DNA of 64,000 nt, taken from assembly GCA_963788655.1 (NCBI GenBank), contig CAWBHS010000039.1:110833-174832 (forward strand). The letters are read 5' to 3'. Under the pieces are notes generated by a model that did not search any database, was not told the origin of the DNA, and saw nothing but the letters and a program-made list of their open reading frames with translations. Within the stretch, counting starts at the first letter, position 1, and each line of letters starts with the position of its first letter. The position numbers and the translations under genes are program-made. Shown here in pieces: positions 17,602-46,245 of this stretch. The DNA is from an uncultured Verrucomicrobiae bacterium (GTDB lineage Bacteria > Verrucomicrobiota > Verrucomicrobiia > Limisphaerales > JAFGQR01).

Positions 17602-19023
17602 ATGAAAACCACCAAGATCCTCTGCTTTGAACACGGTTCCGTGCCTGAATGGACAGCCACCCTCAAGGCACACCTGGTTTCAGAAGTGGGTGACAGATTG
17701 TTGTTCCGCCATGAACGGCAATTGCCCCTGCCGGGCACGGATGCCCCGGTGGAACTGCGGTCCGAGCTGCAGACCTTTGCGCCGGATCTGCTCTTCTTGC
17801 TTTTGTCGCCAGCCGGGCGTGGCGATAGTGAGCGGCTGCTTCGTGAAGTGCAGTTAAATGCCCCCAAGCTGCCCGTGGTTGTCGTGACGGACACGGATGA
17901 GCCGCGCTTTGTCCAGAAGTTGTTTGAACTGGGCGCCAGTGATTTTCTTGTGCCGCCGTTGCGGGCTGTTGAGGTTTGCCCCCGGCTAAGTCGGTTGCTT
18001 CAATTCCGCGAACAGCAGAACACGCAACTGGCGCAACTGCGGAGCCAAATTGGCTTGGAGCAATTGATTGGGGATAGCCCGCTGTTGCTGGAGGAAATCC
18101 GGAAAATTCCCTTGCTCGCCCAGTGCAATGCCAGCGTCCTAATTACGGGTGAAACCGGTACCGGCAAAGAACTGTTCGCCCGCGCGGTGCATTATCTAAG
18201 CCCGCGTGCGCACCAGCCGTTCGTGGCCTTGAACAGCGGCGCCATCCCGGTTGATCTGGTGGAAAACGAACTATTCGGCCACGAAACGGGCGCATACACC
18301 AATGCCCACACGGCTCAACCCGGAGTCATTCGCGAAGCCGAAGGGGGCACGTTGTTTCTGGACGAAATCGATTCCCTGCCGCCCGCGGCCCAAGTCAAGC
18401 TGCTCCGTTTTCTTCAGGACAAGGAATTTCGTCCACTCGGCGCCCGCAAAACCTGCCGAGCCGATGTTCGTGTTATTTCCGCTTGTAACGCGAAACTGGA
18501 TGAGGCCCTGGCCGCCCGCCGGTTGCGGGAAGATCTTTACTACCGCTTGAACGTCCTCCGTCTGCACTTGCCGCCCCTGCGCGATCGCCGGGACAATATC
18601 CCGCTGCTGGCTCGGCATTTTTTGGGGCAATATGCGACGGCGTTCGGACGGTCGGCATGTGATTTGACGCCTGCCGCGTTGCGCAGGCTGACGCTTTACG
18701 ATTGGCCTGGCAACGTTCGCGAACTGGAGAATGTGATCGAGCGCGCCGTCGCCCTGTCGTCCGGTGCCGCGATTCAGGCCGGCGACATTGACGTGCCGGT
18801 GACCGACGGCAACGTGGTTTCGCCAGAATCCTTCAGTCAACTCAAAGCACGGGTGATGGCCGAGTTTGAACGGGGGTACGTGATGCAAATGCTCGAGCGT
18901 CACCAAGGGAATATTGCGCACGCCGCTCGAGCCGCGCAGAAGAACCGGCGGGCGTTTTTTCAACTCATGCGCAAACACCACATTCGCGTCCAGCAACACC
19001 CCTTGGCCGTATCCATTCAGTAG
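17602..19023 (+). CDS. Sigma54-dependent transcriptional activator (NtrC/Fis family) with degenerate receiver domain
   Basis: Walker A GETGTGKE, ELFGHETGAYTNA, Walker B LFLDEI, LYYRL, WPGNVRELEN, C-terminal Fis-type HTH. Confidence 0.93.
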   Translation: MKTTKILCFEHGSVPEWTATLKAHLVSEVGDRLLFRHERQLPLPGTDAPVELRSELQTFAPDLLFLLLSPAGRGDSERLLREVQLNAPKLPVVVVTDTDEPRFVQKLFELGASDFLVPPLRAVEVCPRLSRLLQFREQQNTQLAQLRSQIGLEQLIGDSPLLLEEIRKIPLLAQCNASVLITGETGTGKELFARAVHYLSPRAHQPFVALNSGAIPVDLVENELFGHETGAYTNAHTAQPGVIREAEGGTLFLDEIDSLPPAAQVKLLRFLQDKEFRPLGARKTCRADVRVISACNAKLDEALAARRLREDLYYRLNVLRLHLPPLRDRRDNIPLLARHFLGQYATAFGRSACDLTPAALRRLTLYDWPGNVRELENVIERAVALSSGAAIQAGDIDVPVTDGNVVSPESFSQLKARVMAEFERGYVMQMLERHQGNIAHAARAAQKNRRAFFQLMRKHHIRVQQHPLAVSIQ

Positions 19024-19196
19024 CTGGAGCAGCGATGACGCGCTTCGGCGCGGTAGGACAGGCGTCTCGCCTGTCTCGAATAGCCAAGCACATCCTCCCT
19101 TGTTGGTGACCTGGAGAGACTTCCTACGCCGCGGTGCCAATCGATGGTTGGCAGTCGTTCGAAACAGGCGGGACGCCTGTCCTACTGAATAGTCAC
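19006..19196. repeat. MITE/REP-like element, family B copy 2; supplies the activator stop codon
   Basis: Direct repeat of 12734-12923; TAG at 19021-19023 lies inside it. Confidence 0.85.
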
Positions 19197-19238
19197 CCCT
19201 TAGCGACAATTTCTGGGGTGGTCAAAATAGTGATCGAG

Positions 19239-19471
19239 GTGGACCGAAATGTCCACCCGGCTCTGTAGGCTCAGAATTCAGCCGAGCTTGGGTTCGGTTC
19301 AAACGGAACCGCGGTAGTGGGCTATCGCAGTCCATGCCGCTATACGACTACTCAAGGAGTTGGAAAATCCACCAGCCTGGAGGGGGGCACTCCTCTACCA
19401 CGCTTGCGAAGCCTCCTTGATCCTCATTCTACGCCGCATTGCGAAACCTCGACGTGGACAACTTGATCCAC
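19239..19471 (+). promoter_or_regulatory. Candidate enhancer (UAS) sites GTGGA-N8-TCCAC x2
   Basis: GTGGAccgaaatgTCCAC at 19239-19256 and GTGGAcaacttgaTCCAC at 19454-19471, upstream of the -24/-12 box. Confidence 0.5.
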
Positions 19472-19512
19472 CTTCAGCGTAGCGCACACCTGGAAACACC
19501 CTGTTTATTGAG

Positions 19513-19528
19513 TGGCATCAGCATTGCT
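19513..19528 (+). promoter_or_regulatory. Sigma54 (-24/-12) promoter of the eCIS operon
   Basis: TGGCATCAGCATTGCT: GG-N10-GC spacing with TT before GC; 30 bp upstream of ATG 19559. Confidence 0.8.
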
Positions 19529-19558: not shown

Positions 19559-19867
19559 ATGAAGGCACGATCACAATCCATCGGGTCTCCGCTCGCTGCG
19601 GAAATCCTGGAGTACCTGAAGCGTCATCCGAACGCTAAAGACACCTTGGAAGGCATCACCCACTGGTGGTTGTTGGAACAGCGCATTCAGCACACCATCC
19701 CGGAAGTCGAAGGCGCCCTGACCGAGTTGGTCGAGCAAGGCTTGGTGCAGCAACACCAGCAGCGGGATGGTCGCATTTGTTATCGCCGCAGCCGGCAGCC
19801 AGATGACGAAAGCGGCTGCAATTCGGAAACCCAACCGGCGAAACAGCGGGTTCCCAAGCGTAAGTGA
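19559..19867 (+). CDS. Small winged-helix-like protein, first gene of the eCIS operon
   Basis: EILEYLKRHPNAKDTLEGITHWWL...VEGALTELVEQGLV...GRICYR fits a wHTH pattern. Confidence 0.7.
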   Translation: MKARSQSIGSPLAAEILEYLKRHPNAKDTLEGITHWWLLEQRIQHTIPEVEGALTELVEQGLVQQHQQRDGRICYRRSRQPDDESGCNSETQPAKQRVPKRK

Positions 19868-19914: not shown

Positions 19915-20133
19915 ATGAGCGTACACATCATTAACCGGTCCGGCCGGTTGACTTATATTCCCTTGAACAGCGGTGAGTCGATTCACCTTGCGCCAGGCGA
20001 ACGGTCCGGACCCATTGAAGAATTGGACCTCGAGGAGAACCCCAAAGTCCAAAAACTGCTGAAAGCCCATCTCATTGCTGAGACTGAAGCCGCCAAAAAA
20101 GGCGGCCCCAGTAAGCACGGCAAGAAGAAATAA
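19915..20133 (+). CDS. Small hypothetical protein upstream of the sheath gene
   Basis: 72 aa, AGGAG RBS, position within the operon. Confidence 0.7.
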   Translation: MSVHIINRSGRLTYIPLNSGESIHLAPGERSGPIEELDLEENPKVQKLLKAHLIAETEAAKKGGPSKHGKKK

Positions 20134-20166: not shown

Positions 20167-22041
20167 ATGGAGCTATTACATCCCGGCGTATTTATTCAGG
20201 AAGTGTCCAGCGGCCTGCGGCCCATTGAAGGCGTCAGTACGTCCACCACGGCCTTCCTCGGCAAAGCGGAGAAAGGCCCATTGGACCGGGCCCTCATGGT
20301 CACGAGTTTTACCGAATTCGAGCGAACCTTTGGCGGATATTTGAATGACAGTTACCTGGCGCACGCCGCCCTGCAGTATTACAACAATGGCGGCAAACGC
20401 TTGTATGTCGTCCGCGTGGCCAAGGATGCGGAAACGGCTGACGTGAGCGTGCAGGATCGGAAAGGCGCCCCAGCCAAAACGATTACCATTGCCGCCACGA
20501 GCGCCGGAGCCTGGGGCAATGGCCTGGATGTGGTCATTGCCGATGGGTCGCAGGATCCGGGGGATGAATTCAAACTCACGTTGCAACAAGCCGGTAATGT
20601 GCTCGAAGTCCATGACAATTTGAGTATGAACCCGGACGCGCTCAACTTCGCCGAGAACGTCGTCAACGCGAAGTCGCAATTCATCCGGGTCGCGGTTGAA
20701 CCGGGCAACGATTCCAATGCCGACGGCACCAGCGTCAGCGGCGCCAGTCCGGCCACCAGCTTGCCGGCGGATCGACGCAAACTGCGTATCAATGTCGATG
20801 GCGACGGTTTTCAAACGATCACGTTGGCCAATCCCTGCACGACCGGCGCCGAAATTGCCACGGCCATTCAAACCGCGGTGCGAGCGTTGTCCCCACTGCG
20901 CGGCAGCACCGATGCCACCGCGTTGAGCGCGTTCACCGCGGGCTTTGCCGCCGGCGTTTACACGCTGACTTCCGGCGCCTCCGGCAAGAAATCCTCCGTG
21001 CAAGTGGCCAACGACCCGGTCGGCAACGCCGCTACGCTTTTGCGCCTAGGAACCACCAATGGCGGCTCGGAAACCACCGGTGCCGCCGTGCTCCGTCCGG
21101 CCAACGGCACTTACAACGTGGGTGACGCACCCGTCGCCGGCAATGTTGTGGGGGCGACGCTGGGCAGCGATGGCACCACGCCGCAGGACATCGATTTCAT
21201 GAACGCGTTCGCGCTGCTGGACATTGTGCGCGACGTGAACATTGTCGCCGTGCCGGGCATTGGCACCAAGGCAGTCGTCGAGCATGGGAGCAATTATTGC
21301 GGTCTGCGCATGGATTGCTTTTTTGTAGCCGACATGGCGCCCACCGATGACACCAAGGAAGAAGCGCAAACCTTCGTCAACAATCTGGCGGTCAAAAGTT
21401 CGTATGCAGCCGCGTATTTTCCCTGGTTAAATCCATCGATCCCACTGGCGCTTCACCCGATCCCATCCTCCTGCCGCCCTCGGGTTATGTCACCGGCATG
21501 TATGCGCGCATCGATGGTCGGCGTGGCGTTTGGAAAGCACCCGCGGGCACCGAAGCCAACCTGGGCGGTGCCGTTGGATTGGCCAAAGAAATCACCGATG
21601 CCGAACAGGACACGTTGAATCCGATTGGCGTCAATGTAATCCGCGCGTTCCCGTCTTCGGGCATTGTGATTTGGGGATCACGTCACGCTGGCCACGCGTT
21701 CCGACCCCGAATATCGCTACGTGCCCGTGCGACGGCTGGCGATCTTTCTCGAGCAAAGCATTTACAATGGCATTCAATGGGCCGTATTTGAGCCGAATGA
21801 TGAAGATCTCTGGGCCAGTTTGCGCCTGAACATCGGCGCGTTCATGATGAACATGTTCCGTGCCGGCGCGTTCCAGGGCCAAACACCCTCCGCCGCGTTT
21901 TTCGTCAAGTGTGACGGACAGACCAATCCGCAGGACCAAATCGATGCCGGCATTGTGACGATTCTGGTGGGCTTCGCTCCGGTGAAGCCGGCCGAATTTG
22001 TCGTGTTGAAGATCAGCCAAAAGGCCGGCCAGTCCGCTTGA
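20167..22041 (+). CDS. Contractile tail sheath protein; frameshifts near 21430 and 21684
   Basis: HPGVFIQE, TTAFLG, YYNNGG, then AAAYFPW, GVWKAPAG, LNPIGVNVIR, WGSR, VRRL, VFEPNDE, VGFAPVKPAEF across three frames. Confidence 0.95.
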
Positions 22042-22078: not shown

Positions 22079-22579
22079 ATGGCAAAGTTTACCGTCAATA
22101 CTCACCGCTTCGATCCGTATCGCAACTTCAAGTTTCGCGTCAAGGTCGATGGCCAATACGTCGCGGGATTGAACAAATGCAGCGCGTTGAAGCGCACCAC
22201 GGAAGTCACGCCCTGGCGCGAAGGCGGCGATCCCAGCACCAGCCGCCAGTTGCCGGGGAAAACCAAATACGAAGCCGTCACGCTCGAAGCCGGCCTGACC
22301 CACGATACCACCTTCGAGTCGTGGGCCAACCTGGTCCACAACTTCCAAGGCGACGCCGCGTCGTCTTTGAAGAACTTCCGCAAAGACATCATCGTGGACG
22401 TCTATAACGAGGCCGGGCAGAAGGTGCATTCGTATAAACTGTTTCGCTGCTGGGTTTCCGAATACCAGGCCCTTCCCGATCTCGATGCCAGTGCCAACGC
22501 CATTGCGATCCAGCACATCAAGCTCGAAAACGAAGGCTGGGAACGCGACACTTCGGTCACTGAACCGACGGAGACGTGA
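22079..22579 (+). CDS. Tail tube protein (T4 gp19-like)
   Basis: DPYRNFKFRV, REGG, PGKTKYEAVTLEAG, LDASANAIAIQHIKLENEG. Confidence 0.95.
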   Translation: MAKFTVNTHRFDPYRNFKFRVKVDGQYVAGLNKCSALKRTTEVTPWREGGDPSTSRQLPGKTKYEAVTLEAGLTHDTTFESWANLVHNFQGDAASSLKNFRKDIIVDVYNEAGQKVHSYKLFRCWVSEYQALPDLDASANAIAIQHIKLENEGWERDTSVTEPTET

Positions 22580-22650: not shown

Positions 22651-22884
22651 GTCCCGGAGGGACGCCCGACAATAGCCCACGGTTTCAACCGTGGGTATCG
22701 GGTTTGACAAAGAAGCCAAAGCCCCGAAGGGGCGAAAGAAACGTTGCGCTCGATTCCATGCCTCCTAGAATTGGGACGCGGTGGGAAACTCTGTCATTCT
22801 GTCGTCCCCTACGGGACTTATTCATATTCGCCGCTGTTACCCACCGATAAATCGGTGGGCTATTCTCGACCGTCCCTCCGGGAC
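22651..22884. repeat. Composite REP-like palindrome, family C
   Basis: Terminal 14-bp inverted repeat GTCCCGGAGGGACG/CGTCCCTCCGGGAC, inner AATAGCCCAC/GTGGGCTATT, sub-hairpins CCCACGGTTTCAACCGTGGG and CCCACCGATAAATCGGTGGG. Confidence 0.85.
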
Positions 22885-22933
22885 GATGTTGCCTCACCTA
22901 TTGGTTGCCCAGCGTTCAACTCCGCCATCGTCC

Positions 22934-23835
22934 ATGAACATTGCAACCTACTCAGACATTGTAATCTCACGCTGCCCGGAGGCGTTCTTAAGCCCGATGG
23001 CCCGGCGACCCGCACCGTCCGATTGCGCCCCATCACCGGCGAGGATGAAGAGTGGTTGTTTTCACTGGATGCGCCATTGCCTCAAGCCATGCTCGTGACC
23101 GAATTGTTGGCACGCTGCGTTAAGGACATTGGTTCCAAACGCGCCGACCGCGAAACCATCCGCCACCTCCTGGTGGCCGACCGCGAATTTCTGTTGCTCA
23201 AGCTGCACGCGCTCAGTTTTGGCGCGCGCGTTGAATTGGTCCGCCATTGTTCCCAGGCAAGTTGCGGCGCGAAAATGGACCTGGACTTTGATCTGACCGC
23301 GGTGCCCATCGAAGAACAGCCCGTGAAATCCGAGTATGAATTCGTATCTGGCGACGGCCCGCCCCACCGCTTTCGTTTCCGGTTGCCCGACGGCGCCGAT
23401 CAGGAAGCGGCCTGCGCCTGGGCCGATATGCCCGCCGAAGATATGGCCGCCCGGCTGCTCGCCCGTTGCCTGATGGACATCGACGGTAAATCGCCCGTGG
23501 AACCCGCCGACGTGCTGGCGTTGCCCGGCCCCGACCGCACCGCGTTGGAGAGCAAGATGGAGCGTTGCTCGCCCAGGGTGCATTTTGAGATGGAGGCCAC
23601 CTGCCCCCACTGCGGGCGCAGTTTCGACGCGCGCATCGATCCCGCGTCGTTTGCGCTGACAGAACTGCTGAATGCCCGAAGCGATTTCGAGCGCGAAGTC
23701 CACTTGCTGGCCTTTCACTATCATTGGTCCTTGCAGGAAATTCTCGGACTGCCCCGGCTGCGCCGCCGGCGTTACGTTTGGTTGCTTGCCCGGCAATTGG
23801 ATCAATCCACGAACTACGCCTACGCCGCTGCATGA
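22934..23835 (+). CDS. eCIS baseplate/assembly chaperone-like protein with two Cys pairs and a DUF6760-like C-terminus; probable frameshift near 22967
   Basis: TLPGG, LRPITGEDE, LLVADREFLL, CSQASC, FRLPDGADQ, CPHCG, EVHLLAFHYHWS; ATG 22934 is one base out of frame. Confidence 0.75.
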
Positions 23836-24808
23836 GCACGTTCTTGGAACACATCATCGCCTCCGGCGTGCAGGTGGTTGAACCCGCCGCCAAACGCCAC
23901 GGACCCAATGTGGCTTCTCCTCGGCTGGTGCCTGGGCTCGAAGCAGCGGATCTTGAGATCGAACGCGGCGTCGAAAACGCAACACAACCGTTCCCGCCAT
24001 CGAGTCCCACGCCGGCATCGCCAGGTGCGATACAGGCTGCCGCTGTGCGGTCGCGCCCCGGCGTGAGTAATCAGTTCGCTGACGGCAACGTACAACGCGA
24101 AGGTTCCCGATCTCCAACTCTCACGAGTGGCGCCGCCGAACCCTCATCGGCGTCTTCCGCACCGCAGGCGTCGGATTCTGAAGTGGCACCTTCTTCGGCG
24201 CTATTTCCTTCGCGCCCAGTTCCTGAACAACCCAGTCCAAAACCGTCCTTGCGAACTGTGGAGATTCGATCGGTCGATACGCTGCCGCCACTGGAAACGT
24301 CCCGCATGTCAGGCCGTCAACGGCCGGCGTCCCAGCCATCGTTGGCCGGTGCCCAAGTGCATCCCATCGCACCGGCATCCTCGAGTTCGACACCCATTTC
24401 ACGGAACATGCCGACTGCCGAGCCTCGGACGGCGTCCGTGCCGAAAGCACGTGTCCGCAGAGACACGATCCGAACGAATTCGATAAGCTGCCGAAGACGC
24501 CGGAGCCCGCTCGGTCACAATCTAATCGCAGCACCGCCAGCCCCGCGCAGCGATCCAGCCACGGCAACGACTTCTCCCGATCCCAGTCATTGTCCGCACC
24601 TCAACCTTGGGCGCCGGCGGCCCTGCCCAGCGTTTCCTCGCCGGCGCGCGGTTTGGTCATCAAGCATCTCGAAGTCCGCGTAATCCAGCCGCCGCCGCCG
24701 CAACCACCCGTGCCGGCGCCGGCATCCGAACCCGAACCCCATCGCCCGCCGCGTCCACCGTCCGGCGCCTGGACCAATGCCGCCCGCTACTACCTCCGCG
24801 GAATTTGA
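23832..24808 (+). CDS. Pro/Ser/Ala-rich low-complexity eCIS protein (frameshifted)
   Basis: ATG overlaps the upstream stop (ATGA); C-terminal LVIKHLEVRVIQPPP...RYYLRGI is in another frame and ends 6 bp before Pvc16. Confidence 0.6.
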
Positions 24809-24814: not shown

Positions 24815-25633
24815 ATGAGTGCGAGCATTGGAAAAGTGACGGAGTCATTGAAGAGCCTGCTCGAAGCGCAGATGACTCCGGCCACCGATGTCACGTTGTT
24901 GTCGCCGGCGGAGAAAAGTTCGCACAACACCCGCATCAATCTCTTTCTCTATCGCGTGACACCCAACGCGCATTTGAACAACCAGGATTGGCGTCCGAAG
25001 CCCGGCACCACGAACCAGCTTGTGGCACCCCCGTTGACATTGAACCTGTATTACTTGCTCACCGCCTACGCCCCGGTCGATCCGAACAGCGGTTTGGTCG
25101 ATGCGCATGGGCTGTTGGGCGAAGCCATGCGGGTGCTGCACGAAAACGCCATCCTGCCGCAAGCCGTGCTGGAAAGCGGCCTCAAGCCCGGCAGTGTCAA
25201 GGTGACGCCAACATCGCTGGACATGGAGGAAATAAGCAAAATCTGGCTGGCGTTGCAGCAGGACTTTCAATTGTCCGCCGGCTACGAAGTGTCCTACGTC
25301 GAAGTGCCGGCCAAGACCGAACGCCCCTTGCCGACGCGCGTGAATCAAACCGAACTCGAAGTGCGCGCCACGATGCGTTCGCCCAAGGTGCTGGACATGA
25401 CGCCCAGTTCCGGACCAGTCGGCACCGACCTGAATTTCACCGGTGAAAACCTAAACAACTGGAAAGCCACCGTGTTTGTCGGTGGCCAGGTCGCCGCCAA
25501 AGATGCTCTCCTGTTCGACGATCACACCTTCACCGCCAAAGTGCCGCCCGGCTTGGCGATTGGGCTCTACGCCGTCGAAGTCAACGTCGGCAACCTGGCC
25601 AAATTCCAGGCAACGTTCGAGGTCACCGCATGA
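24815..25633 (+). CDS. Pvc16/Afp16 (DUF4255) tail terminator-like protein with C-terminal IPT/TIG-like domain
   Basis: INLFLYRVTPN, PPLTLNLYYLLTAY, ISKIW, SAGYEVS; then PKVLDMTPSSGPVGTDLNFTGENL. Confidence 0.88.
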   Translation: MSASIGKVTESLKSLLEAQMTPATDVTLLSPAEKSSHNTRINLFLYRVTPNAHLNNQDWRPKPGTTNQLVAPPLTLNLYYLLTAYAPVDPNSGLVDAHGLLGEAMRVLHENAILPQAVLESGLKPGSVKVTPTSLDMEEISKIWLALQQDFQLSAGYEVSYVEVPAKTERPLPTRVNQTELEVRATMRSPKVLDMTPSSGPVGTDLNFTGENLNNWKATVFVGGQVAAKDALLFDDHTFTAKVPPGLAIGLYAVEVNVGNLAKFQATFEVTA

Positions 25634-27829
25634 AAACCAAAGCCGCCATTCCGTTTGCCTCCGGACGCGAACATCTGGTCGCCGAATTGGCGTGGCTGGA
25701 TCGGTGCCTGGCGCTGCAAGTGCGGTTGTTTCATCGCGAGCTGGGAAACGAAAGCGGCCACGGCTGGTTCTTGTCGCGTCGCGAAATCGAATCGTTGGTT
25801 GAAACCGCGCCAGCAACTGAGCCGGAAGAATCAGTCCAAGCGCGCGTGGAAATACTCCAGTCCCGTCGCGAATTGGATGCACGCAAGCAAGCCGGCGTCA
25901 AAAAGGGCGCCTTCCTTCCGCTGGCCTTCATCGCCGGTGTATTTCGATTGTCACGCCATCGAAGAACTGGCGCTGCTCGTGACCTTGGCCGGCGAACTCG
26001 ACAGCAAATACAGCAAGCTGTACGCGTATCTACAGGACGACGTCACCCGCAAGTTGCCCAGCCTCGACCTGGTCTTTCAATTCGCCCGGACTGCCGGCCT
26101 GAGCGAGCCGGCCCAAGTTGGCATGTTCAACCCGGCAGCGCCTTTGTTCTCCTGGCAACTTGTCCACGTGACCGGCGATCCGGCGCTGCCGACACACCGG
26201 TTGTTGCAGCACCTCGTCGTTGACCAACGGGTATTGAGCTTGGTCTTTGGGACTGCGCCAAAGTGATGACCAACTCCGCCCCATTCTGCGCCGCTTGCCG
26301 ACCCGTCAAGGCTCTGAGACAACGGCCCAGCCGTATCGCGATTTGATCGAGCCAATGCGGCGAATGCTCAAATTGACTGGCAAACGATTGGTCGCTTGCT
26401 TTCACGGACCCGCCGCCTCTGAGGGCCTGCAAATCGCCCAAGAAATTTGCCGCGAACAACGGCTGGGTCTGGTGCATGCCGACCTCAGTGCGCTGGTGGC
26501 GACCGCCGCCGCCGGTGGTTTGTCGTGCGTCGATGGCTTGCGCCGGATTTATCGCGAAGCATTGCTCCAAACCGCCGCCGTCTATTTGTCCGGCTTCGAC
26601 GCCCTGCTGGAAGATCCCGCGCCAACCTGGCGTTGCCGGTCCTGGAGGAAATTCTGCGCGATGCCTCATGGATCACCTTCATCGAAGCACGCCAGCCCTG
26701 GATCATGCGGACATTGGCGGACGATCTGGTGGTTTTGCCGTTTGCATTGGCGGTGCCGGATTATGCGTCGCGCCTTGGCCAATGGAAGCAGCAGCGCAAC
26801 GGTGACGACAAATCATTGCCCGACCGCGAGCTTGAATCGGTGGCGGCGCGCTACTGTTTTAACACCGCTGAAATTGACGACACGATGCGCCTGGCTCGGG
26901 GCCGAACGCAGATGCGCGCGCAGAAGGATCGGGCCGTCCGCATCGACAACGTCCTGTGGGCCTGCCGCATGCGATCGGCGGCGAACTTCGGTTCGCTGGC
27001 GCGGGTGACGGTGCCTCGCGCGACCTGGGACGATCTGGTTTTGCCTGACGACGTGCTGGCCGCATTGCGCGAACTCTGCGCCCAGGTGCGCCAACGTGCG
27101 CGGGTGTTGCACGAATGGGGCTTCGACCGCCGGCTCTCGATGGGGAAGGGATTGCACGCGTTGTTCGTCGGACCCAGCGGCACCGGCAAAACGTTGGCGG
27201 CGGAAGTCATTGCGTCCGCACTCGGCCTGGGCTTGGTGAAAGTGGATTTGGCCGGTGTAGTGAGCAAATACATCGGGGAAACCGAGAAGAATCTCCAACG
27301 CATCTTCGAAAGCGCCGAACGCAGCGATGCCATTTTGTTCTTCGACGAGGCGGACGCGCTGTTCGGCAAGCGTTCCGAAGTCAAGGACGCTCACGACCGC
27401 TACGCCAACATCGAAATCAATTTCCTGCTCCAGCGTCTCGAGGAATACGAAGGCGTGGTCGTGCTCGCCAGCAACCTGGCCCAAAACATCGACGAGTCGT
27501 TCGCGCGCCGGCTCCACTTTACCGTCGAGTTTCCGTTTCCCAACGAGGCGTGTCGGGAAGCGATCTGGCGCCATCATTTTCCGCCCGAGACGCCGGTGGA
27601 CCCGGACGTTGATCTGCCCTGGCTCGCGAAGCAAATCAAAGTTCCCGGCGGCAGCATCCGCAACATCGTGTTGAACGCGGCGTACTTGGCTGCCGACCGC
27701 AATCGCCCCGTGCAGATGGACCATTTACTCCAGGCTGCGCGCCGCGAGTTTGACAAGATGGGCAAGCCGTACCTGAGCGAAGAATTCACCGGACCCGCTG
27801 CGGTGGCGGTGAACGGAGGCAAGTCATGA
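25630..27829 (+). CDS. Afp15/Pvc15-like AAA+ ATPase; frameshifts near 25955, 26260 and 26630
   Basis: YAYLQDDVTRKLP, WDDLVLP, Walker A GPSGTGKT, SKYIGETEKNL, ILFFDEADALFGKRSEVKDAHDRYAN. Confidence 0.93.
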
Positions 27830-28170
27830 TCGAGATTGATCGAATGCAGATCACGTTGGAGAACGCGGCATTGGACGAACGCCAGGCAAATGCGGTCGTT
27901 ACTCGCGCGTTGGAGTTGTTGGAAAACCACTGTAACGAATCCAACCAATGGAACGGTCGCGTGGACGACATGGTTCTGCCGCCAATGGAACTCAATTCCG
28001 AAAGCTTGAGCAACGATCAGTTGTCAGAGCAAATGGCCGCGGAAATGTATGCGACAGTAGCTGCGTTCGTGAGAACGCGGCTGACTTCAAATGAAAACGC
28101 CGCACCCACTCCAGTCAGCCGTGTTCTCACGAACGCAGCTACGCCAACTGAACGTTCCGAGAACCAATAA
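27826..28170 (+). CDS. Small hypothetical eCIS protein with a palindrome in its 3' end
   Basis: ATGA overlap with the ATPase stop; IEIDRMQITL start; ends 2 bp before the next gene. Confidence 0.65.
   Translation: MIEIDRMQITLENAALDERQANAVVTRALELLENHCNESNQWNGRVDDMVLPPMELNSESLSNDQLSEQMAAEMYATVAAFVRTRLTSNENAAPTPVSRVLTNAATPTERSENQ
28057..28142. repeat. REP-like palindrome, family D (intragenic)
   Basis: 30-bp arms GTAGCTGCGTTCGTGAGAACGCGGCTGACT / AGTCAGCCGTGTTCTCACGAACGCAGCTAC, 29/30 match. Confidence 0.88.
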
Positions 28171-32909: not shown

Positions 32910-32985
32910 TAGCTGTCCATTTTTGCAGACCGTTCAAACTCGAAGAGCCCTCCGGCAAAACCCGAGGCTTCCTAAACAGAGCTAA

Positions 32986-37719: not shown

Positions 37720-38301
37720 ATGGGACGATACATTTTTTCCCGACGGGATCTCCATCCGTTGCGCGGCTTGATCGACTCGCCGCTGGGCAGAGCGACCCTG
37801 GGCGCCACGGTGCCGATCAAACAAACCACCACCGCCCCGACGCACCAGGAGACCTCCGAAGTATCCCTGCCGGTGCCCGTGCAAAGCCAGGAGCAACCGG
37901 AAGGGGTGCCGCTGCACGAGATCCTCAGCGCCGTGCAAACCAAGGTGCCTTCGATCAAAGCGCTGGCCGTCCGCGCCGGCAAGCTCGAGATCAGTTACGA
38001 GAAATCGCCCACGGACGAAGAACGTGAACAGGTGGAGCGGGCGTTGACCACCCCGCAAACGTTCGAGCGCGTGCGCATCGCCCGGCCGGCCCTGCTCGCA
38101 GCGCAGCCCTCGGCGGACTTGCTGGATATTCTCACCAATCCAGCCACGTCGGATACGGACTGGTTGAAAGCCTTTCGCCAGTACGCGGTGGCGAATCTTT
38201 TTCCCGCTCGCAGCGGAACGGCCGGCGCACCGTCGGCCCCGTCGGTCACCGCGGCAACCACCAAGGCCAAGGCAAAAACGACTCGCAGCGGCAACACTTG
38301 A
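37720..38301 (+). CDS. Hypothetical eCIS-associated protein
   Basis: 193 aa, tightly packed between the DUF6519 and gp25 genes. Confidence 0.6.
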   Translation: MGRYIFSRRDLHPLRGLIDSPLGRATLGATVPIKQTTTAPTHQETSEVSLPVPVQSQEQPEGVPLHEILSAVQTKVPSIKALAVRAGKLEISYEKSPTDEEREQVERALTTPQTFERVRIARPALLAAQPSADLLDILTNPATSDTDWLKAFRQYAVANLFPARSGTAGAPSAPSVTAATTKAKAKTTRSGNT

Positions 38302-38318: not shown

Positions 38319-39233
38319 ATGCCCCCCGTTCCGCGCTATCTCGGCAACCAGAAGACGAACGAGTTTCACGACCGTTCGCGCGAGAAGCCGCAGTGTCAAT
38401 TGTCCGAGATTACTGCCCATCATCACGAAACATTCTTCACGCCGGACACCTGGGAACAAGCGGTGCGCGAAGGTTTCGAACCGTGTTTCTTTTGCATCGG
38501 CACGTTCGCTGATCTGGCGGGAGGGGCCGGCGGCATCCTGGCTTCGCCGACCGATTTGCGCGGCCAGGATTTGGGCGGTGGACAGGTTTCGCTCGAATGG
38601 ACGCACCCGGACAACATCGTGGCGCAAGGCATCCGGTTCGATGTCTATTCCAGCCCGGACCCGCTGAATCCATTTCGCACATTGCGCGCCGGCAGTGTGA
38701 CGGATACTTCGGTGGTGTTGCCGGGTTTTGCGAGCGGCGGGGATTTGTATTTTACGGTGGTGGCCCGGCGCGGAGGACAATTGAGTTTGCCGTCGGCCAC
38801 GGCGCTGGTCTCCGTGCAACCGATCCGGGATGATGTTGCGGTGACACCCGCGGGCCGCACCGCCAGCGCGCCTTCCGGACTGGGCTTTCCGTTCAAAATC
38901 GACGGCACCGGCAGTGTCTTTGCCCAGGGCGGCGATCCGTTGTTGCGCGGCAAGATTCTGCAATTGCTCCTCACTGCTCCGGGTGAACGCGTGAACTTGC
39001 CGGACTACGGCACGCGGTTGCGCGATCTGGTGTTTGATCCGAACAACGACGTGCTGGCGGCGACCACCGAGTTCATGATCAATCGCGCGCTCCAGAAATT
39101 TCTCGGCGATGAAATCCGCGTGGACAAGGTCCAGGTGAGCAACCAGGAGAACGAACTGGATGTCGATATTGTTTATTTGCGCAAGGCCGATCTGCGCTTG
39201 GAACGAGTGCGTGTGGGCGTGCCGGTGCCGTAA
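38319..39233 (+). CDS. GPW/gp25 (Afp9-like) protein with N-terminal Cys/His and FN3-like domains
   Basis: C-terminal GLGFPF, ILQLLLTAPGERVNLPDYG; N-terminal YLGN...FH...C...GFEPCFFC; SPTDL...VSLEW...YFTVVA. Confidence 0.88.
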   Translation: MPPVPRYLGNQKTNEFHDRSREKPQCQLSEITAHHHETFFTPDTWEQAVREGFEPCFFCIGTFADLAGGAGGILASPTDLRGQDLGGGQVSLEWTHPDNIVAQGIRFDVYSSPDPLNPFRTLRAGSVTDTSVVLPGFASGGDLYFTVVARRGGQLSLPSATALVSVQPIRDDVAVTPAGRTASAPSGLGFPFKIDGTGSVFAQGGDPLLRGKILQLLLTAPGERVNLPDYGTRLRDLVFDPNNDVLAATTEFMINRALQKFLGDEIRVDKVQVSNQENELDVDIVYLRKADLRLERVRVGVPVP

Positions 39234-39245: not shown

Positions 39246-39902
39246 ATGGACGAACTCACCGCCCGCTTTATCGAACAGACCTGGAACAAGTATTGGGGCA
39301 AGTACCGCGGCCTTGTCTCCGACAACAACGATCCGCTGCAAGTCGGCCGTTTGAAAGTGCGGGTTCCCAGTCTGCTGGCGGACACCGACACCGGCTGGGC
39401 CTGGCCGGTGGTGCCATACGCGGGAGCGGACATTGGATTATTTTTCATGCCGCAAGTGGGCGACCAGGTTTGGGTCGAGTTCGAAGAAGGCGATTTAAAT
39501 CATCCGCTCTGGACCGGTTGCAGTTGGGCCAAGCCCGGCGGGCAGAGTGAAATTCCCGCCGAGGCCCAACAATCATATCCCAAGAAGCAGGTGCTCAAAA
39601 CGCCCGCCGGCAATCTCATCGTGATCGATGACAGTTCCGGTCAGGAGTCGATCACCATCCGCGCCAAGAACGACGACCTGTGTCAGATCATTTTTGATGC
39701 GGCTTCGAAAAAAGTCACCGTGCAGGCCAGCGAAGTCGTCATTCAAGGTAACCAGATATTTCCGCCGGAAGGATTGGCCACGAAATCATTTGTCGAACAA
39801 GTGTTCAACAATCACACGCACCCGAGCGGCGTGGGGCCGACCGGCCCGCCCATTCCGGTCCCCATTCCGCACGCAGTGACGACGGTGCTGAAAGCGGAGT
39901 AA
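39246..39902 (+). CDS. Baseplate spike (gpV / gp5 OB-fold) with HxH tip motif
   Basis: GKYRGLVSDNNDPLQVGRLKVRVP, MPQVGDQVWVEFEEGD, C-terminal FNNHTHP. Confidence 0.9.
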   Translation: MDELTARFIEQTWNKYWGKYRGLVSDNNDPLQVGRLKVRVPSLLADTDTGWAWPVVPYAGADIGLFFMPQVGDQVWVEFEEGDLNHPLWTGCSWAKPGGQSEIPAEAQQSYPKKQVLKTPAGNLIVIDDSSGQESITIRAKNDDLCQIIFDAASKKVTVQASEVVIQGNQIFPPEGLATKSFVEQVFNNHTHPSGVGPTGPPIPVPIPHAVTTVLKAE

Positions 39903-39904
39903 CC

Positions 39905-40456
39905 ATGCCACTGAATCGCAATTCACTGGGCCAGAGCTTGCAGAACCTGTTTGACGGCGAACCGGAATTCCCTGCGGACGAAGCCGCCGCCGGCAAGCGT
40001 TGGGCCAGTGCCTATCGCGAATACACCACCAATGCGTTGGCAGGCGCAACACGTCCAGTGTCTGCCTCGCTCATCGCGGCGGAAAACCTGTTGGGTAACG
40101 CGTTGGGCAGCGCGTTCACCGCGGCCAAACAAGCCAAGCTGACCGGACTCGCGGTGCTAGCGCCGTTGGTGGACGCTGCGTTTGTGGCCTTCTGGTTCGC
40201 GCCACCGATCGCCTTTGCCAATCCCCCACCGCCAGCGCCGCCGACGATGGCGGGCGTGGTGTCGCTCGCGCCACCGGGAGTATTGGGCGGACTGCTGACC
40301 ACCGCATTCACGGCAGGCGGCGCGCCGGGAATTACCACCGGTCAACAAGCGGACGCCATTGCCACCGCGTTGGATACCTGGACCAAAACCGTGATGGTCA
40401 TCAACACGCCGGTAACGCCACCCGGCCCGCCCACGCCCCCGGTGCCATTGGCGTGA
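39905..40456 (+). CDS. Hypothetical Ala/Pro-rich protein downstream of the spike
   Basis: 183 aa, starts 2 bp after the spike stop, hydrophobic helices. Confidence 0.65.
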   Translation: MPLNRNSLGQSLQNLFDGEPEFPADEAAAGKRWASAYREYTTNALAGATRPVSASLIAAENLLGNALGSAFTAAKQAKLTGLAVLAPLVDAAFVAFWFAPPIAFANPPPPAPPTMAGVVSLAPPGVLGGLLTTAFTAGGAPGITTGQQADAIATALDTWTKTVMVINTPVTPPGPPTPPVPLA

Positions 40457-40466: not shown

Positions 40467-41879
40467 ATGCAAACCACCACGACATTGGCAAAGAAAACGA
40501 ATCCTCCATCATCAACGGTGATGGCTGGATCCCGTCGCGCAACCAGTCAGCTTCCGCCGCGACAACGGCTGCAACGAACGCTGGGCAATCAGGCATTGGG
40601 ACAACTGCTGCAAAGCGGCGCATTGCAAGCCAAACTGCGCGTCAATCAGCCGCATGATGCATACGAAGCGCAGGCCGATGAAGTCGCGCGGCAAGTGATG
40701 AGCATGGCACCGGCACAATTGCGGTCCCCGGATGCTGTTTCAAACGCGGGCTCAGAAATAGCTCCCGGGCAGACCAACTCCATTTCGGTTTTGGCGCCCC
40801 AAACTGCTCCGACGGCTGGCGAACATTCCCCCACCGAGGCGGGCATCGGCGTGGAAAGCCAACTCCACACCAGCGTCGGCCACGGCCAGCCGTTGGCTCC
40901 GGAAATCCGCGCTTTCATGGAGCCGCGTTTCGGCGTGGATTTCCGCCACGTTCGCGTGCATACGGACGGCCGTGCCGAACGCATGAATCGAGCGCTGAAC
41001 GCCGAAGCATTCACGCATCGCCAGGACATTTACTTCCGGGCAGGCAAACGTCCCGGCAAGGACGCGTTGACGGCGCACGAATTGACGCACGTGGTGCAGC
41101 AAACCGGCAGGGAGCCCGGCACCCGCGCGGAGCTGCCAGGCCTTCAACGGGTCGTGGAAGTGCGGCGGCCAGGCCGGGGCGAAGCGTCGGCGTTTGATCG
41201 GGTGGACGAACTCATCGACCGGCTCAACGGCCTTTCGCCGGCCATCCAATATCATTTCGAAGGTAAGGATGGCCGCGGCGCGATTGAGTACGACGTGGTT
41301 GATGAAGCCGCACTCACCGCGTTCGACCGCCAGATGCGCGCGTTCATTGATCGAGCCGAAATTGTGCCCATGCGGCTCATCACCAGCGCCGGTCGCGTGG
41401 ATGGCCAGGCGTTGCTCGTCGATAGCTACAACCTCGCGTATGTGGATTTGGATGACATGCTCGCGTCCGACAACGTGAGTTTTCAAATGAACCTGGTCCA
41501 CCTGCTGACCGAACGGTTCCGTGTCCGCAATTACGCCCGGCGCATCGGCACGCGCGGCATGCCCGGGTTTGGACCGGAATTCAATCGTGCTCATCAGGCG
41601 GGTATTGACGCTGAAACTGATCTCTTGCGCGACGTCCTGAACGATCCGACCATCCGTTTCACGTCCGAGTTTCGGCGGCCGGGCAATACGCTGGTTTTCA
41701 TGTTCCGCAGTCGTGAGGGCTATGTGGTCTTTCACATATTCGGGGGAACCCAACGCTCGGAAGTCGGCGGCTACTTGTCGGTTTTGACCGCCGATGGCCG
41801 GCGCATTTCGCTGGAAGATTTCCTGGCCGAACGCGCAGCGGCAGCCAATGTCGCTGCCCCGGCTGCTGCTGGACCTTGA
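40467..41879 (+). CDS. DUF4157 protein 1 (candidate eCIS cargo), unknown C-terminal domain
   Basis: LQRTLGNQA, MEPRFGVDFRHVRVH, AEAFT, AHELTHVVQQ. Confidence 0.88.
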   Translation: MQTTTTLAKKTNPPSSTVMAGSRRATSQLPPRQRLQRTLGNQALGQLLQSGALQAKLRVNQPHDAYEAQADEVARQVMSMAPAQLRSPDAVSNAGSEIAPGQTNSISVLAPQTAPTAGEHSPTEAGIGVESQLHTSVGHGQPLAPEIRAFMEPRFGVDFRHVRVHTDGRAERMNRALNAEAFTHRQDIYFRAGKRPGKDALTAHELTHVVQQTGREPGTRAELPGLQRVVEVRRPGRGEASAFDRVDELIDRLNGLSPAIQYHFEGKDGRGAIEYDVVDEAALTAFDRQMRAFIDRAEIVPMRLITSAGRVDGQALLVDSYNLAYVDLDDMLASDNVSFQMNLVHLLTERFRVRNYARRIGTRGMPGFGPEFNRAHQAGIDAETDLLRDVLNDPTIRFTSEFRRPGNTLVFMFRSREGYVVFHIFGGTQRSEVGGYLSVLTADGRRISLEDFLAERAAAANVAAPAAAGP

Positions 41880-42248: not shown

Positions 42249-43985
42249 ATGCAGCCCACAACACCCACCCACGCCGGCAAGGATTCGCGCCGAATGGTTG
42301 CACCGATTCAACGTGCAGCAAAGGCGCCAAGCAACGCCGCATTGCCGCCCCATCACCAACTGAATCGCATCCTGGGCAATCGCGCAGCATCGGCAGTGCT
42401 CCAGGCCAAACTGAACGTCAGCCATCCGGAAGACGCCGCGGAGCGCGAAGCCAATCAGATCGCGGATCAAATTACGGCGGCGCCATCTTCTCCTACTCTC
42501 CAGCGCGCCTGCCCGGAATGCCGTAATGGAGTCAAGTGCCCGAAGTGCCGGGAAAAGGAAAAGCAGGCGTTGCACCGCCGAGCTGAATCAAACGCGCCGG
42601 AATCGGCCCACACGGTGCCGGGAGATTTCGTCACCCGGTTGGGCCCAGGCGCGCCACTCGCGACCGCCGAACGCGATTTCTTCGAGCCCCGGTTGGGTTG
42701 CGATCTAAGCCAGGTGCGAATTCACTCTGGACGTGCCGCAGCGGATTCTGCCCGCTCGGTTGATGCAATGGCTTACACGGTAGGCCGCGACATTGTGTTT
42801 GGCGCCGGACAGTATGCGCCGCAATCGAGTGCGGGCCGGTCGCTGATGGCCCACGAACTGGTTCATACCATTCAGCAAGGCGGCACCGGATCACGCCAGT
42901 TGCAGCGCCGGGCGATGCCGTTCAATCCGGAGTCCATTGCCCAACAACTCCGTGAGGCCATGGAAGGTTTGGGCACGGATGAGGACTCGATTTACGCCGC
43001 GTTGGCGGGCCGCACGCCGGACCAGGTCAATCAAATCGCCCAAGCGTATCAACGGCTCACACACCGCAATCTCCAAGCGGACCTGCAAGATGAATTGACC
43101 TCCGGCGAACTGCTCAAACTGGCGCAATATTCCGCCGCGGCTGCCGACACGCCAGAACATCGCGCCGAGGCTGTGGCCATTCGTCTCCGCGAGGCGATGG
43201 AAGGTTTGGGTACGGACGAAGACGCCATTTACGCGGCGCTGAACGGTCGCAGTCCCGACGAGCTGAATGCCATCAAGGAAGCCTACCGGCGCCTCACGAA
43301 TCGAGAACTGATCAATGACTTGAACGATGAACTGAGCGGCGACGAATTGCAGCGCGCGCTCGGCGAACTGGGCATTGCCCCGGAAGTATTTGAGTCCAAT
43401 ACCGAGCTGGGCATGCTCTCGATGGGCAATTTCGATTTCCACTTCCGCAATTGCTCGGTCCTCATTTGGGTGTGGTTGAAATTCCAGTTTACCAACGATA
43501 TCAGCGCCACTGAGCAAACTGATTTCAAGCGCCGCTTCATCGCCGCGGTGCATGGCACCTGGGCGCATTCGGGGTATCATCTGACGGGCAGCCCGAGTTG
43601 CCCCTGCGGCGACGTGCCGATCGAAGTCCACGTGCAGGAAAATCCCGGCACTTATTATCATAAGCTGGTCGATGTCGAGCGCGCCACCGACCAGGAACGG
43701 CGCCCCAAAGTAATCAGCGACATCAATGTGAACCTGTTCACCAGCAACGATACCCTGGCGCACGAGTTCGGTCACGTGCTCGGGCTCTACGACGAATACG
43801 ACGGCGGCTTTTTCGAGAACATCATGTTCTGGCACAAAAACGTGGCCAACGATCCGGATGCGTTGATGGTCACCGGCACGGAGCTTCGTCCACGCTACTT
43901 CGAGCATTACCGGCGACGCGTCCAAACCACGGCGCCGCCGGGATGCGAATACCGGATTTCCTCGCCGGTGCCGCCGGTTCACTGA
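42249..43985 (+). CDS. DUF4157 protein 2 with two annexin repeats and a C-terminal zincin metalloprotease
   Basis: AHELVHTIQQ; 2x LREAMEGLGTDED...DE; TLAHEFGHVLGLYDEY...ALM. Confidence 0.9.
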   Translation: MQPTTPTHAGKDSRRMVAPIQRAAKAPSNAALPPHHQLNRILGNRAASAVLQAKLNVSHPEDAAEREANQIADQITAAPSSPTLQRACPECRNGVKCPKCREKEKQALHRRAESNAPESAHTVPGDFVTRLGPGAPLATAERDFFEPRLGCDLSQVRIHSGRAAADSARSVDAMAYTVGRDIVFGAGQYAPQSSAGRSLMAHELVHTIQQGGTGSRQLQRRAMPFNPESIAQQLREAMEGLGTDEDSIYAALAGRTPDQVNQIAQAYQRLTHRNLQADLQDELTSGELLKLAQYSAAAADTPEHRAEAVAIRLREAMEGLGTDEDAIYAALNGRSPDELNAIKEAYRRLTNRELINDLNDELSGDELQRALGELGIAPEVFESNTELGMLSMGNFDFHFRNCSVLIWVWLKFQFTNDISATEQTDFKRRFIAAVHGTWAHSGYHLTGSPSCPCGDVPIEVHVQENPGTYYHKLVDVERATDQERRPKVISDINVNLFTSNDTLAHEFGHVLGLYDEYDGGFFENIMFWHKNVANDPDALMVTGTELRPRYFEHYRRRVQTTAPPGCEYRISSPVPPVH

Positions 43986-44075
43986 CCGCCTATTGAATAC
44001 TCGTAGCCGCGGACGTGAGTCTGCGCTGACTGAATAAGTGAAATATGAACATCGCCCTACCATTCCACGCTTGCG

Positions 44076-44154
44076 TCTTGGAGTGCGGTAGTCCTCTGCC
44101 GCTTTTGGGACACACAAGGACATTCGAAAGCGGCAGAGAGCTGCCGCACTCCAA
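44076..44154. repeat. REP-like palindrome, family A copy 3
   Basis: TTGGAGTGCGGTAGTCCTCTGCCGCTTT...AAAGCGGCAGAGAGCTGCCGCACTCCAA followed by ACCTGGCGG as in the other copies. Confidence 0.85.
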
Positions 44155-44204
44155 AACCTGGCGGAGAATTGGATGAGGCTAGGGATGCAACTCGGAGCTG
44201 TCGG

Positions 44205-46245
44205 ATGAATTACAGCGGACAGACAAAAAGCGCTGACAGGCTGCGCAGCGGTGCAGCCAAATCCAAGGTGGCGCCGCGTCCGGTTTCGGCTTCGGCGCAT
44301 CCCGGGATGCAACTCCAGCGCACGCTGGGCAACCAGGGTGCCCAACGTTTGCTGCGAGCGGGTGTGATTCAGCTCAAACTGAAAATCAGCCGGTCATCAG
44401 ATCGTTTCGAACAAGAGGCCGAGCGAGTGGCCGATCAAGTCGATGCGCGGCGGCGAAACGAAGATACCAACGCGCTCGCGGGTTGGCCCAGCGACTGGAA
44501 CCCCAGTGAATCGCAAGCCGTTTAAGTCCGCAGGACTGGTTGGCGAGGCGCCAACCACAGCGCCCGAGGCGGGCGCGCTCCCCTTTGCAAATGAATCGTT
44601 GTGCTTTGGGTCGAGTTCATCCGGCGAACCCATGCCGCGCGACCTCCGGCAGGAAATGGAAAGTCGGATGGGCGCCGATTTCCGGCAGGTGCGGATTCAC
44701 CGGGATGCGGCATCCGACCAAGCCGCGCGCGCACTGGATGCTCGGGCATTTACGCTGGGCCATCACGTGGCGTTTGCTCGAGACGAATTTGCGCCGGGCT
44801 CGAATGCCGGGCGTCACCTGCTGGCGCATGAATTGGCGCATGTGGTTCAACAATCCGGACCGTCGCCATCGGTTGGCCCAATGATTCAACGCCAGCCATC
44901 CGCGCAGCACGAACCGGAAGAGCCTTCGTTGCCGCCGTTTCAACTTCCGGGCACCGGCTTGACGGTTTTCCCCGGATTGTTCCGGTTGACGAACCTGGGC
45001 GGACTTCAACTCCCGTTGCCCGCCAGCTTGCGATTAACCAATGCGTTGAGCGTGGGCGCCGGGCCGACTTGGATTTTGGACCTGTCGCCGGACGCTTTAG
45101 TGGGCACCATTTTGGGCAATGTGGATTTGTCAGTTTCGAGCGTGCCTGGAACTCCGCCGGATCATGATCCGAGTCCGGCGAACACGGCCCGCATCAGCCT
45201 GGTGCGGCCCATCATCCGGCTCGATCCGCGCACCGGCAAATTGCACGGTTGGGCCACGCTGCAAGTGCCGACTGGCTATCCGCTGACGATCAGCACGCCG
45301 ACCGAGATTTCCGTGGAGATCGAGTCGAGTGAACTGGGTCAGTTCAGCGGTCGCCTGGGCTACGGTCCATTGCACGCGGATTTTCAATTGCGATTTCATT
45401 ATGACACCGGCCGATTCGAGTCCGCGCTGCGACCGGCACTGGCACCGCAAGGCGGAATGGTCGGCTTATGGTCGCGCTTCCAACAGGTGCTGACGGACAC
45501 GGTGCCGGGCATTCAGTTGACCAGCGTTTCGGATGGCCTGCAAAGTGCGCTGCGAGCCTTGACCTCGGGCCAGATTCGCAGCGCGCAATTCGTCACGCGA
45601 ACCGTGGACCTGATCCGCAGCAGCGTTCCCGCCAACGTGAGTTGGGATTCGGTGCGCACGGCCTTGCGGCAATTTGCCGAAGAGTTGACGCATCCGGGCT
45701 TCGCGCTGTCGGGCGGGCTCGGCCTCTTCGGACTGCCGCTTTCAACCTTCCACGCCGAGGCGCCCACGACCGTGCCGCTGGCCCGACCGTTGCTCGGAGC
45801 GCCGACGCCATTCCCGCTGACCTATTCGGCAGGCGGCGTGATCCTAGCGCCGCCGGGCAGCATTACCGACATCTCCGTGCCGGCGTTTGGTTACGCGCGA
45901 TCCGCCTTCGGCGCGACGAGCGGCAGCGCGCTGACGATTGCGGCGTTGCCGACGTTGTCACCGGAGTCGATCAGTGCCGGCAGACCGGTGGTGAATCAAT
46001 TTCCGGTGTATGCCTACGCGGAGTTTTCCTACGTGCGCCGCGTGTCGGAGAGCGTCGATCTCGGCGTGCGCCTGACCGCGCAGGTTTCCACGCCGCAATT
46101 GTTCGGCACGCCCGAGCAACCGTCCGCCGATCCCGCCGAACGCTTTGGGCAACTCCGCGACCAATACCTCGAAGCCACTCAGCAAACTTCGACCCCGGCG
46201 CCCATGCTGCCGAACTTTGGACTGACGCTGTATGGGAATTTCTAA
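44205..46245 (+). CDS. DUF4157 protein 3; frameshift near 44440; beta-rich C-terminus ending in Phe
   Basis: LQRTLGNQG leader in one frame; MESRMGADFRQVRIH, ARAFT, AHELAHVVQQ in the next; ends NFGLTLYGNF. Confidence 0.82.

Follow-up and report, generated by a model that had tools for sequence, protein, structure and literature searches.

A co-directional run of contractile-tail genes raises the question of what machine it encodes and, if that machine injects, how it is tipped and switched on. Here, we take up this question for positions 17602-46245 of a 64,000-nucleotide (nt) stretch of DNA, below called the window, from an uncultured Verrucomicrobiae bacterium (assembly GCA_963788655.1, contig CAWBHS010000039.1), where every gene of the run lies on the + strand. 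We hold with good confidence that the run encodes a headless, IIc-related extracellular contractile injection system (eCIS) of lineage II, with a spike that likely carries a built-in iron-binding HxH tip in place of a PAAR protein and with predicted control by a sigma54 activator. The window forms the end of its contig, in a source genome of 8.96 Mb that is 86% complete with 5.6% contamination; Pfam scans covered 60 window proteins.

The spike tip and the gene behind it

The spike protein ends in HTHPSGVGPTGPP. The HxH motif is present in all of the best 120 of 1536 spike matches, and its two histidines, H190 and H192, are invariant across 81 aligned spikes. Such a motif near the C-terminus marks an Fe-binding apex; where it is missing, the spike carries PAAR (bioRxiv 2023.02.25.529910; PMC12407873). 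The initial annotation had already seen no PAAR gene here, and the absence extends further: PAAR_motif has 0 matches in the source genome and in four related genomes (controls matched in 3 of 14). DUF4280 matched nothing, its controls included, and carries no information either way. Read from its sequence, the spike likely ends in a built-in iron-binding tip that replaces the PAAR protein.

The pairing of tip and following gene was tallied over the 118 spike rows of all loci collected. The counts, which are biased and are not frequencies because the metagenome scan used the HxH pattern, are these: HxH spikes are followed by a gene for a helical protein in 37 rows (one a duplicate of the window), by gp25 in 31, by nothing detected in 4 and by a contig edge in 8, and spikes without HxH by a PAAR-like gene in 21 (5 of which helped to build the PAAR profile), by gp25 in 5 and by nothing in 10, with two rows cut. 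An HxH spike with PAAR, and a no-HxH spike with the helical gene, occur in 0/118 rows each. With near-duplicates removed, 29 HxH-helical and 21 no-HxH-PAAR-like pairs are left at 90% identity, and 18 and 17 at 70%. HxH spikes also occur in IIc-ordered loci, for example Paracoccus pPAN2 and L058, so the tip swap is wider than the window's family. PAAR and a built-in HxH apex appear to be interchangeable modules at the tip of the spike, which gives a testable reason for the PAAR-less eCIS left open by Chen 2019. We found no report of an HxH spike in an eCIS in the literature searched (text only, mostly without subscription papers).

The helical protein in the PAAR slot belongs to no Pfam or PHROG family and matches 451 clusters at E<=0.001. 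Its predicted fold (predicted local distance difference test, pLDDT, 92.8) resembles those of four uncharacterised viral proteins (template modelling, TM, scores 0.56-0.74); Foldseek gave no match in the PDB and VIA a best Z of 5.8, which is not proof of a new fold. In five of five viral loci, the helical gene sits directly behind a gene for a spike or for a protein with a similar GP(S/T)-PP end. This points to a large unnamed helical family tied to the HxH apex in eCIS and phages. The protein may be a cap or chaperone of the apex, which is the least certain part of our reading, as its gene is absent behind many HxH spikes. Four translated loci of a second single-J clade (L076, L081, L096, L099) fill the slot behind their HxH spike with a different unnamed protein of 100-130 aa.

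Several observations, besides the bias of the tally and the partly circular PAAR profile, weigh against this reading of tip and partner. The helical gene is dispensable: in 35 HxH rows the spike is followed by a different gene or by none detected, and three loci of the rearranged family (L046, L053, L054) lack it. In the viral loci, the spike-like gene before it has HxH in two of five and one or no histidine in three. L056 (2844-3207), in the same rearranged order as the window, pairs a spike lacking HxH with a PAAR-like gene, so the tip module swaps even inside the family. Finally, the spike monomer model (pLDDT 80.6) reaches TM scores of 0.28-0.35 to eCIS, type VI secretion system (T6SS), P1, R2-pyocin and P2 spikes and ranks VgrG-type eCIS spikes first by E-value; it matches spikes in general, at low scores, and does not resolve the apex fold.

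Gene content and placement within lineage II

A spike of this kind could also belong to a prophage tail or an R-type tailocin, given that P2-like tails and R pyocins typically carry HxH spikes, the helical protein has homologues in phages, and the best TM score of the spike model is to the R2 pyocin spike. However, the locus carries the eCIS markers Pvc16, Afp15-type ATPase, CIS_tube, DUF6519 and DUF4157, has no long tape-measure gene, and lies in a source genome with 0 matches to Terminase_6N or TerL_ATPase (at 86% completeness); Pfam finds no phage head or packaging gene among the window proteins scanned. We regard the prophage or tailocin reading as very improbable and largely refuted already, in line with the initial annotation. 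In addition, afp11 and a non-phage afp1/5 lie in one cluster, the combination by which Chen 2019 recognises an eCIS, and the eight core subunits of that study (Afp1/5, 2/3/4, 7, 8, 9, 11, 15 and 16) are all present. The three eCIS_core (DUF4157) matches of the whole genome all fall within the locus. Its co-directional run and parts list were recovered by Pfam in the order first annotated, as follows (all on the + strand):

17602..19023 (+): sigma54 enhancer-binding protein, likely the dedicated activator, with degenerate receiver, AAA+ domain and Fis-type helix-turn-helix
19513..19528 (+): predicted sigma54 -24/-12 promoter, 31 nt upstream of the first gene
19559..19867 (+): conserved first gene, for a small winged-helix protein
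19915..20133 (+): conserved 72-aa protein of no family
20167..22041 (+): sheath, in three Pfam pieces with two frame breaks; 625-626 aa in relatives
22079..22579 (+): gp19 tube
22855..23835 (+): gp26-like protein (T4_baseplate) with DUF6760, likely an assembly chaperone; start uncertain
23832..24808 (+): Pro-rich low-complexity protein with conserved ends, one break; also found in IIc loci
24815..25633 (+): Pvc16/Afp16 terminator cap with a TIG domain (Pvc16_N and TIG)
25630..27829 (+): Afp15-type ATPase (winged-helix domain, WHD, and AAA), three breaks; 740 aa in relatives
27826..28170 (+): small protein at a conserved position
28173..28835 (+): tube initiator (CIS_tube, Afp7-like)
29301..29588 (+): LysM/tail X wedge subunit
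29588..30783 (+): gp27-like hub, one break (weak Phage_GPD match; 38.6 bits in the intact homologue)
30786..32581 (+): single baseplate J/Afp11, two breaks; 598-602 aa in relatives
32976..34882 (+): second wedge, likely a gp7/Tail_P2_I-like fibre adaptor, two breaks; start uncertain
34893..37715 (+): DUF6519 (eBAP5) fibre with an inserted He_PIG immunoglobulin (Ig) domain
37720..38301 (+): conserved 193-aa protein of no known family
38319..39233 (+): gp25 with N-terminal Cys/His and fn3-like domains
39246..39902 (+): spike with an OB (oligonucleotide/oligosaccharide-binding) fold, short beta-helix and C-terminal HxH apex motif
39905..40456 (+): 183-aa Ala-rich helical protein in the PAAR slot
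40467..41879 (+): candidate cargo 1, with N-terminal segment, DUF4157 and a C-terminal domain without assignment
42249..43985 (+): candidate cargo 2, with DUF4157, two annexin repeats and an HExxH zinc-peptidase-like end
44205..46245 (+): candidate cargo 3, with DUF4157 and a 440-aa domain without assignment; one break, in the N-terminal part
19020-19330, 22579-22860, 28835-29300, 32581-32990, 41879-42249, 43985-44205: intergenic stretches with repeats resembling repetitive extragenic palindromes (REP-like)

Of the two wedges first annotated, one is the baseplate J protein; the second has no Pfam, PHROG or J match, and its ~130 N-terminal residues resemble solely the gene ahead of DUF6519 in IIc loci. 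As the eBAP5 fibre anchor, DUF6519 is paired with Tail_P2_I-type adaptors (PMC12923769), which suggests a role as fibre adaptor for this second wedge. By its position, the Pro-rich protein is a weak candidate for the tape measure. The N-terminal His/Cys domain of gp25 (38319-38500; C..C) is kept, together with the fn3-like domain, in all family members seen, and we take it to be Ada-like.

For the placement, subtype labels were decoded from supplement figures S3-S5 of PMC6899500, a study that describes afp8 as split in IIa, IIb and IIc, afp14 as generally absent from lineage II, afp11 as doubled in IIa and IIc, and afp10 as missing from IIb alone. The initial annotation had judged the locus atypical for its separate hub and spike (rightly placed ~8.5 kb apart: the spike starts, at 39246, 8.46 kb from the hub end at 30783), its missing Afp14, and its single sheath and tube. 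The first two are ordinary lineage-II traits (PMC6899500), and one sheath with one tube is also the layout of Mycobacterium sp. JS623 pMYCSM01, which is listed as IIc.

On gene content, the locus was first assigned to IIb, as the described traits of that subtype (no afp10, single afp11, split afp8) all match. This assignment was dropped after the layout of a IIb proxy, the J tree and the tube tree. The proxy locus, C. azotoformans pORIO4, has two sheaths, two tubes, another gene order and a no-HxH spike; its tube is 28% identical to the window's and its J groups with IIa/IId, so that Afp11 clade and gene organisation both differ from IIb as far as one proxy locus represents it.

The ties to IIc are closer. 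The left-arm order equals that of JS623, and the two tubes (59% identical) share a 100-supported clade in a 23-row tree, with JS623 as sister. The locus might therefore be an ordinary IIc member, or a listed basal IIc branch, with a reshuffled order and no need of a new subtype; the IIc listing spans myxobacteria, Nitrospira and Acidobacteria (PMC6899500) and our trees hold one verified IIc reference, and the spike of Myxococcus stipitatus belongs to the window's spike family. On the other hand, IIc is described with two afp11 and afp10 (PMC6899500), and the window shares its split afp8 but has one afp11 and no afp10 (PAAR); its family also has a DUF6519 fibre. The single J proteins of the family group together at 100 support, apart from both the IIc J1+J2 group and the IIa/IIb/IId-like rows. 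This was read from trees of 25 rows (quick tree) and 32 rows (FastTree, omitting several of the 25 and adding metagenome rows), both without bootstrap and with intact relatives standing in for the window's broken J; with one verified IIc reference in these quick trees, the clade is sister to, or outside, J1+J2. L081, L096, L099, L101 and L111 make up another clade of eCIS with a single J. We find ordinary IIc membership possible but doubtful.

Equally tentative is the bolder suggestion of an undescribed subtype sister to IIc. Such a subtype would have spread laterally in Verrucomicrobiota, Nitrospirota, Acidobacteriota, Myxococcota and Actinomycetota, kept a single J from before the duplication, swapped PAAR for a phage-type iron apex, brought in a new tip-cap family and be the first eCIS with a dedicated sigma54 activator. 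Because the trees contain only one verified IIc reference, we describe the locus as a complete lineage-II eCIS and an IIc-related variant, not a proven new subtype. It is distinct for reasons other than those first given, namely the HxH spike with its helical gene, the single J on its own branch, the gp25-spike module that has moved behind the DUF6519 fibre, and predicted sigma54 control. Its right arm is rearranged relative to IIc, and its left arm has the IIc order. This gene order may already stand in the figures of PMC6899500 (4B, S3-S6) or the supplements of PMC11126660 or PMC12923769.

Predicted sigma54 control and frame breaks

The initial annotation gave the locus its own activator, a claim much strengthened by a conserved promoter site, by linked orthologues and by a best-match test. 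In the window and in three Manganitrophaceae loci, a GG-N10-GC site with a TTGCT core is found 26-31 nt ahead of the first gene, and a site of the same type lies just before the first gene of an Acidobacteriota locus (start codon uncertain). In these five loci, which represent three independent lineages, it is the sole sigma54 site with <=3 mismatches in the 0.8-1 kb before the first gene. Comparable sites number 12 in 64 kb, and a whole-window scan at two mismatches returned 76 sites against 89 expected, which is chance level, so it is position and conservation that speak for this site. Seven other loci have no sigma54 site near the start upstream of the sheath (flanks are short in four).

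All five genomes carry rpoN, and an orthologue of the enhancer-binding protein is linked to the locus in five of five related genomes. In the window and in the Acidobacteriota locus (G044) the gene lies upstream; the four Nitrospirota loci have it downstream, on the other strand (46-51% identity). For both orthologues tested, the window activator is the best of 19 source-genome matches. Its receiver falls below the Pfam cut-off and, by eye against the consensus, presumably lacks the phospho-Asp. What speaks against such an activator is the missing canonical GAFTGA, which reads GAYTNA in the window and GAYTNA, GAFTDA or GAYTDA across the set. From these features, we predict that the operon is switched on by the neighbouring sigma54 activator; promoter and activator would be a handle that most silent eCIS lack and could be used to switch particles on. 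No sigma54-controlled eCIS, and no Manganitrophus eCIS, was found in the literature searched, and the available part of PMC12210884 mentions neither PAAR nor sigma nor the host phyla concerned.

An inverted repeat (GGTGGAC...GTCCACC, 19238-19257) lies ~260 nt upstream of the sigma54 site and is a possible activator binding site; GGTGG-containing motifs also occur upstream in relatives. A short open reading frame (17130-17308) precedes the activator gene, and a sigma54-type and two-component cluster adjoins the G044 locus (L010 14825-20522).

Compared with intact relatives, the locus has ~12 frame changes in seven genes (sheath 2, Pro-rich 1, ATPase 3, hub 1, J 2, second wedge 2, third cargo 1), which counts against an intact machine in this strain. 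It could be a decaying pseudo-operon, a reading that would also fit the genome-wide repeats in six intergenic stretches (REP-like, 14-102 genome matches each) and the absence of the spike from a same-genus genome. However, rpoB (2 frame changes) and rpoC (at least 2) of the same assembly are broken at a similar rate, ~0.5 per kb, sequence identity to intact relatives is high before as well as after the breaks, and the breaks of two related genomes fall at other places. We consider decay quite improbable; the breaks are probably assembly errors, as rpoB and rpoC are affected at a similar rate. Six shorter neighbouring genes are whole, and homopolymer runs adjoin one of nine break regions examined. 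The repeats themselves suggest long residence in this host. Outside the operon lie presumed HypA/HypB-like genes (50529-51839, -) and genes for large PA14/Ig/beta-helix surface proteins (53712-63866, +), several of them with frame breaks likewise. A second partial rpoC copy on another contig, ~90% identical to that of a second genome, fits the 5.6% contamination.

Spread, cargo and comparison with known systems

A first genome scan with the single spike as query found no relative. The profile of the helical gene recovered five loci among GTDB genomes, from three Manganitrophaceae, one Nitrospirae and one Acidobacteriota. The three Manganitrophaceae and the Acidobacteriota keep the window's gene order from the winged-helix gene to the helical gene, mostly at 40-90% identity (tubes 89-90%). 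These four were examined in full, and position and ends served to pair up the Pro-rich and small genes; some carry intact genes, and in one (G043) the locus is split over two contigs. The rearranged right arm also occurs in metagenome loci L034, L036, L041, L049, L051 and L053, and family spikes occur in Ca. Manganitrophus noduliformans, M. stipitatus, Kofleriaceae, Solirubrobacteraceae, Streptosporangium and Nonomuraea. The design is not unique to this genome and recurs in unrelated bacteria; structure and function could be studied in Ca. M. noduliformans, M. stipitatus, Streptosporangium or Nonomuraea, given their family spikes.

The Verrucomicrobiota host named initially is borne out by a NusG 90% identical to that of a same-genus Verrucomicrobia genome, and a flanking window gene 76% identical in a same-genus genome assigns the contig to the source genome. 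The tetranucleotide distance of the locus stands at the 81st percentile among 178 genome chunks. A spike homologue turned up in 38 of 400 further genomes from the host's order, none with a full-length match to the family spike profile, from which we infer that the locus was probably gained horizontally. Two other host-order genomes (L114, L115) have an HxH spike directly followed by gp25.

The proposed three-gene cargo array is supported: the DUF4157 proteins share an N-terminal motif with each other and with DUF4157 proteins of relatives, and their C-termini differ between genomes. Such cargo is not unusual, since DUF4157 genes at the 3' end, annexin in eCIS loci, DUF4157 eCIS in Verrucomicrobia and a Ca. 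Udaeobacter eCIS toxin are published (PMC8213781). In AlgoCIS, loading needs the N-terminal region and not DUF4157 (bioRxiv 2026.05.27.728243). Cargo 1 was tried as a zinc peptidase and rejected (atlas 0.77-0.81, chance level; an unnamed cluster reached 0.94). The end of cargo 2 matches a zinc protease at E ~0.1 and nothing more strongly; cargo 3 has no usable atlas match and one weak, stop-interrupted match in 300 genomes. Three Manganitrophaceae genomes (G041, G042, G043) have 8-10 DUF4157 matches each, mostly far from their single eCIS locus, which suggests a large cargo set in these manganese-oxidiser relatives.

Where the cargo acts is less clear-cut. The annexin repeats of cargo 2 hint weakly at a eukaryotic membrane as target. 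Alternatively, the machine could act inside its producer, in cell death or development as in Streptomyces, or be anchored in the cell instead of released. Among studied systems the nearest is the S. davawensis CIS; it acts on the producer itself, as related lineage-II systems do (PMC11126660), which counts against a released particle, and the scan of 60 proteins brought up no recognisable lysis or immunity gene. Yet the DUF6519 fibre with its Ig insert and the annexin cargo point to an outside target, and no membrane anchor gene was recognised. We think action inside the producer rather unlikely.

With an outside target preferred, the machine might work as follows. The enhancer-binding protein, its receiver likely non-phosphorylated, would open the promoter at 19513-19528. 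By homology, hub, LysM protein, gp25, single J, second wedge and spike would form the baseplate, on which the tube would grow from the initiator, with the sheath around it and Pvc16 as its cap. As in AlgoCIS, the Afp15 ATPase may load the three DUF4157 proteins into the tube via their shared N-terminal segment. Upon binding of the DUF6519 fibre to its target, the sheath would contract and drive forward a pointed apex in which the three HxH motifs of the spike trimer would hold one Fe, as in P2 gpV. Least surely, the helical protein could serve as an optional cap or folding helper of this apex.

Set beside the spikes of phage P2 (gpV) and R pyocins (PA0616), the window's spike shares the OB fold, short beta-helix, C-terminal HxH and lack of PAAR; it differs in belonging to a cargo-carrying eCIS and in having behind it a conserved helical protein that fits no known family. 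The cargo resembles Cgo1 and Cgo2 of AlgoCIS in its shared N-terminal segment, DUF4157 and variable C-terminal domain, whereas AlgoCIS belongs to another eCIS branch with a long fused hub-spike (581 aa) and has different C-terminal domains. A cluster-linked enhancer-binding protein with a sigma54 promoter is also found in T6SS controlled by sigma54 and bacterial enhancer-binding proteins (reportedly through RpoN/Sfa2 in the H2-T6SS of P. aeruginosa), but these are membrane-anchored. The nearest system remains IIc, represented by JS623 and the S. davawensis CIS. Shared with it are one sheath, one 166-aa-type tube, the order gp26-like, Pro-rich, Pvc16, ATPase, small gene, initiator, LysM and hub, the split hub and spike, the lack of Afp14 and the DUF4157 cargo. 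In contrast, the window has one J where IIc has two, an HxH spike with a helical gene where IIc has a short spike with a PAAR-like gene, gp25 (in fusion with further domains) and spike behind the fibre, cargo at the 3' end where IIc has a Tme-like gene upstream of the baseplate, and, alone of the two, a sigma54 activator.

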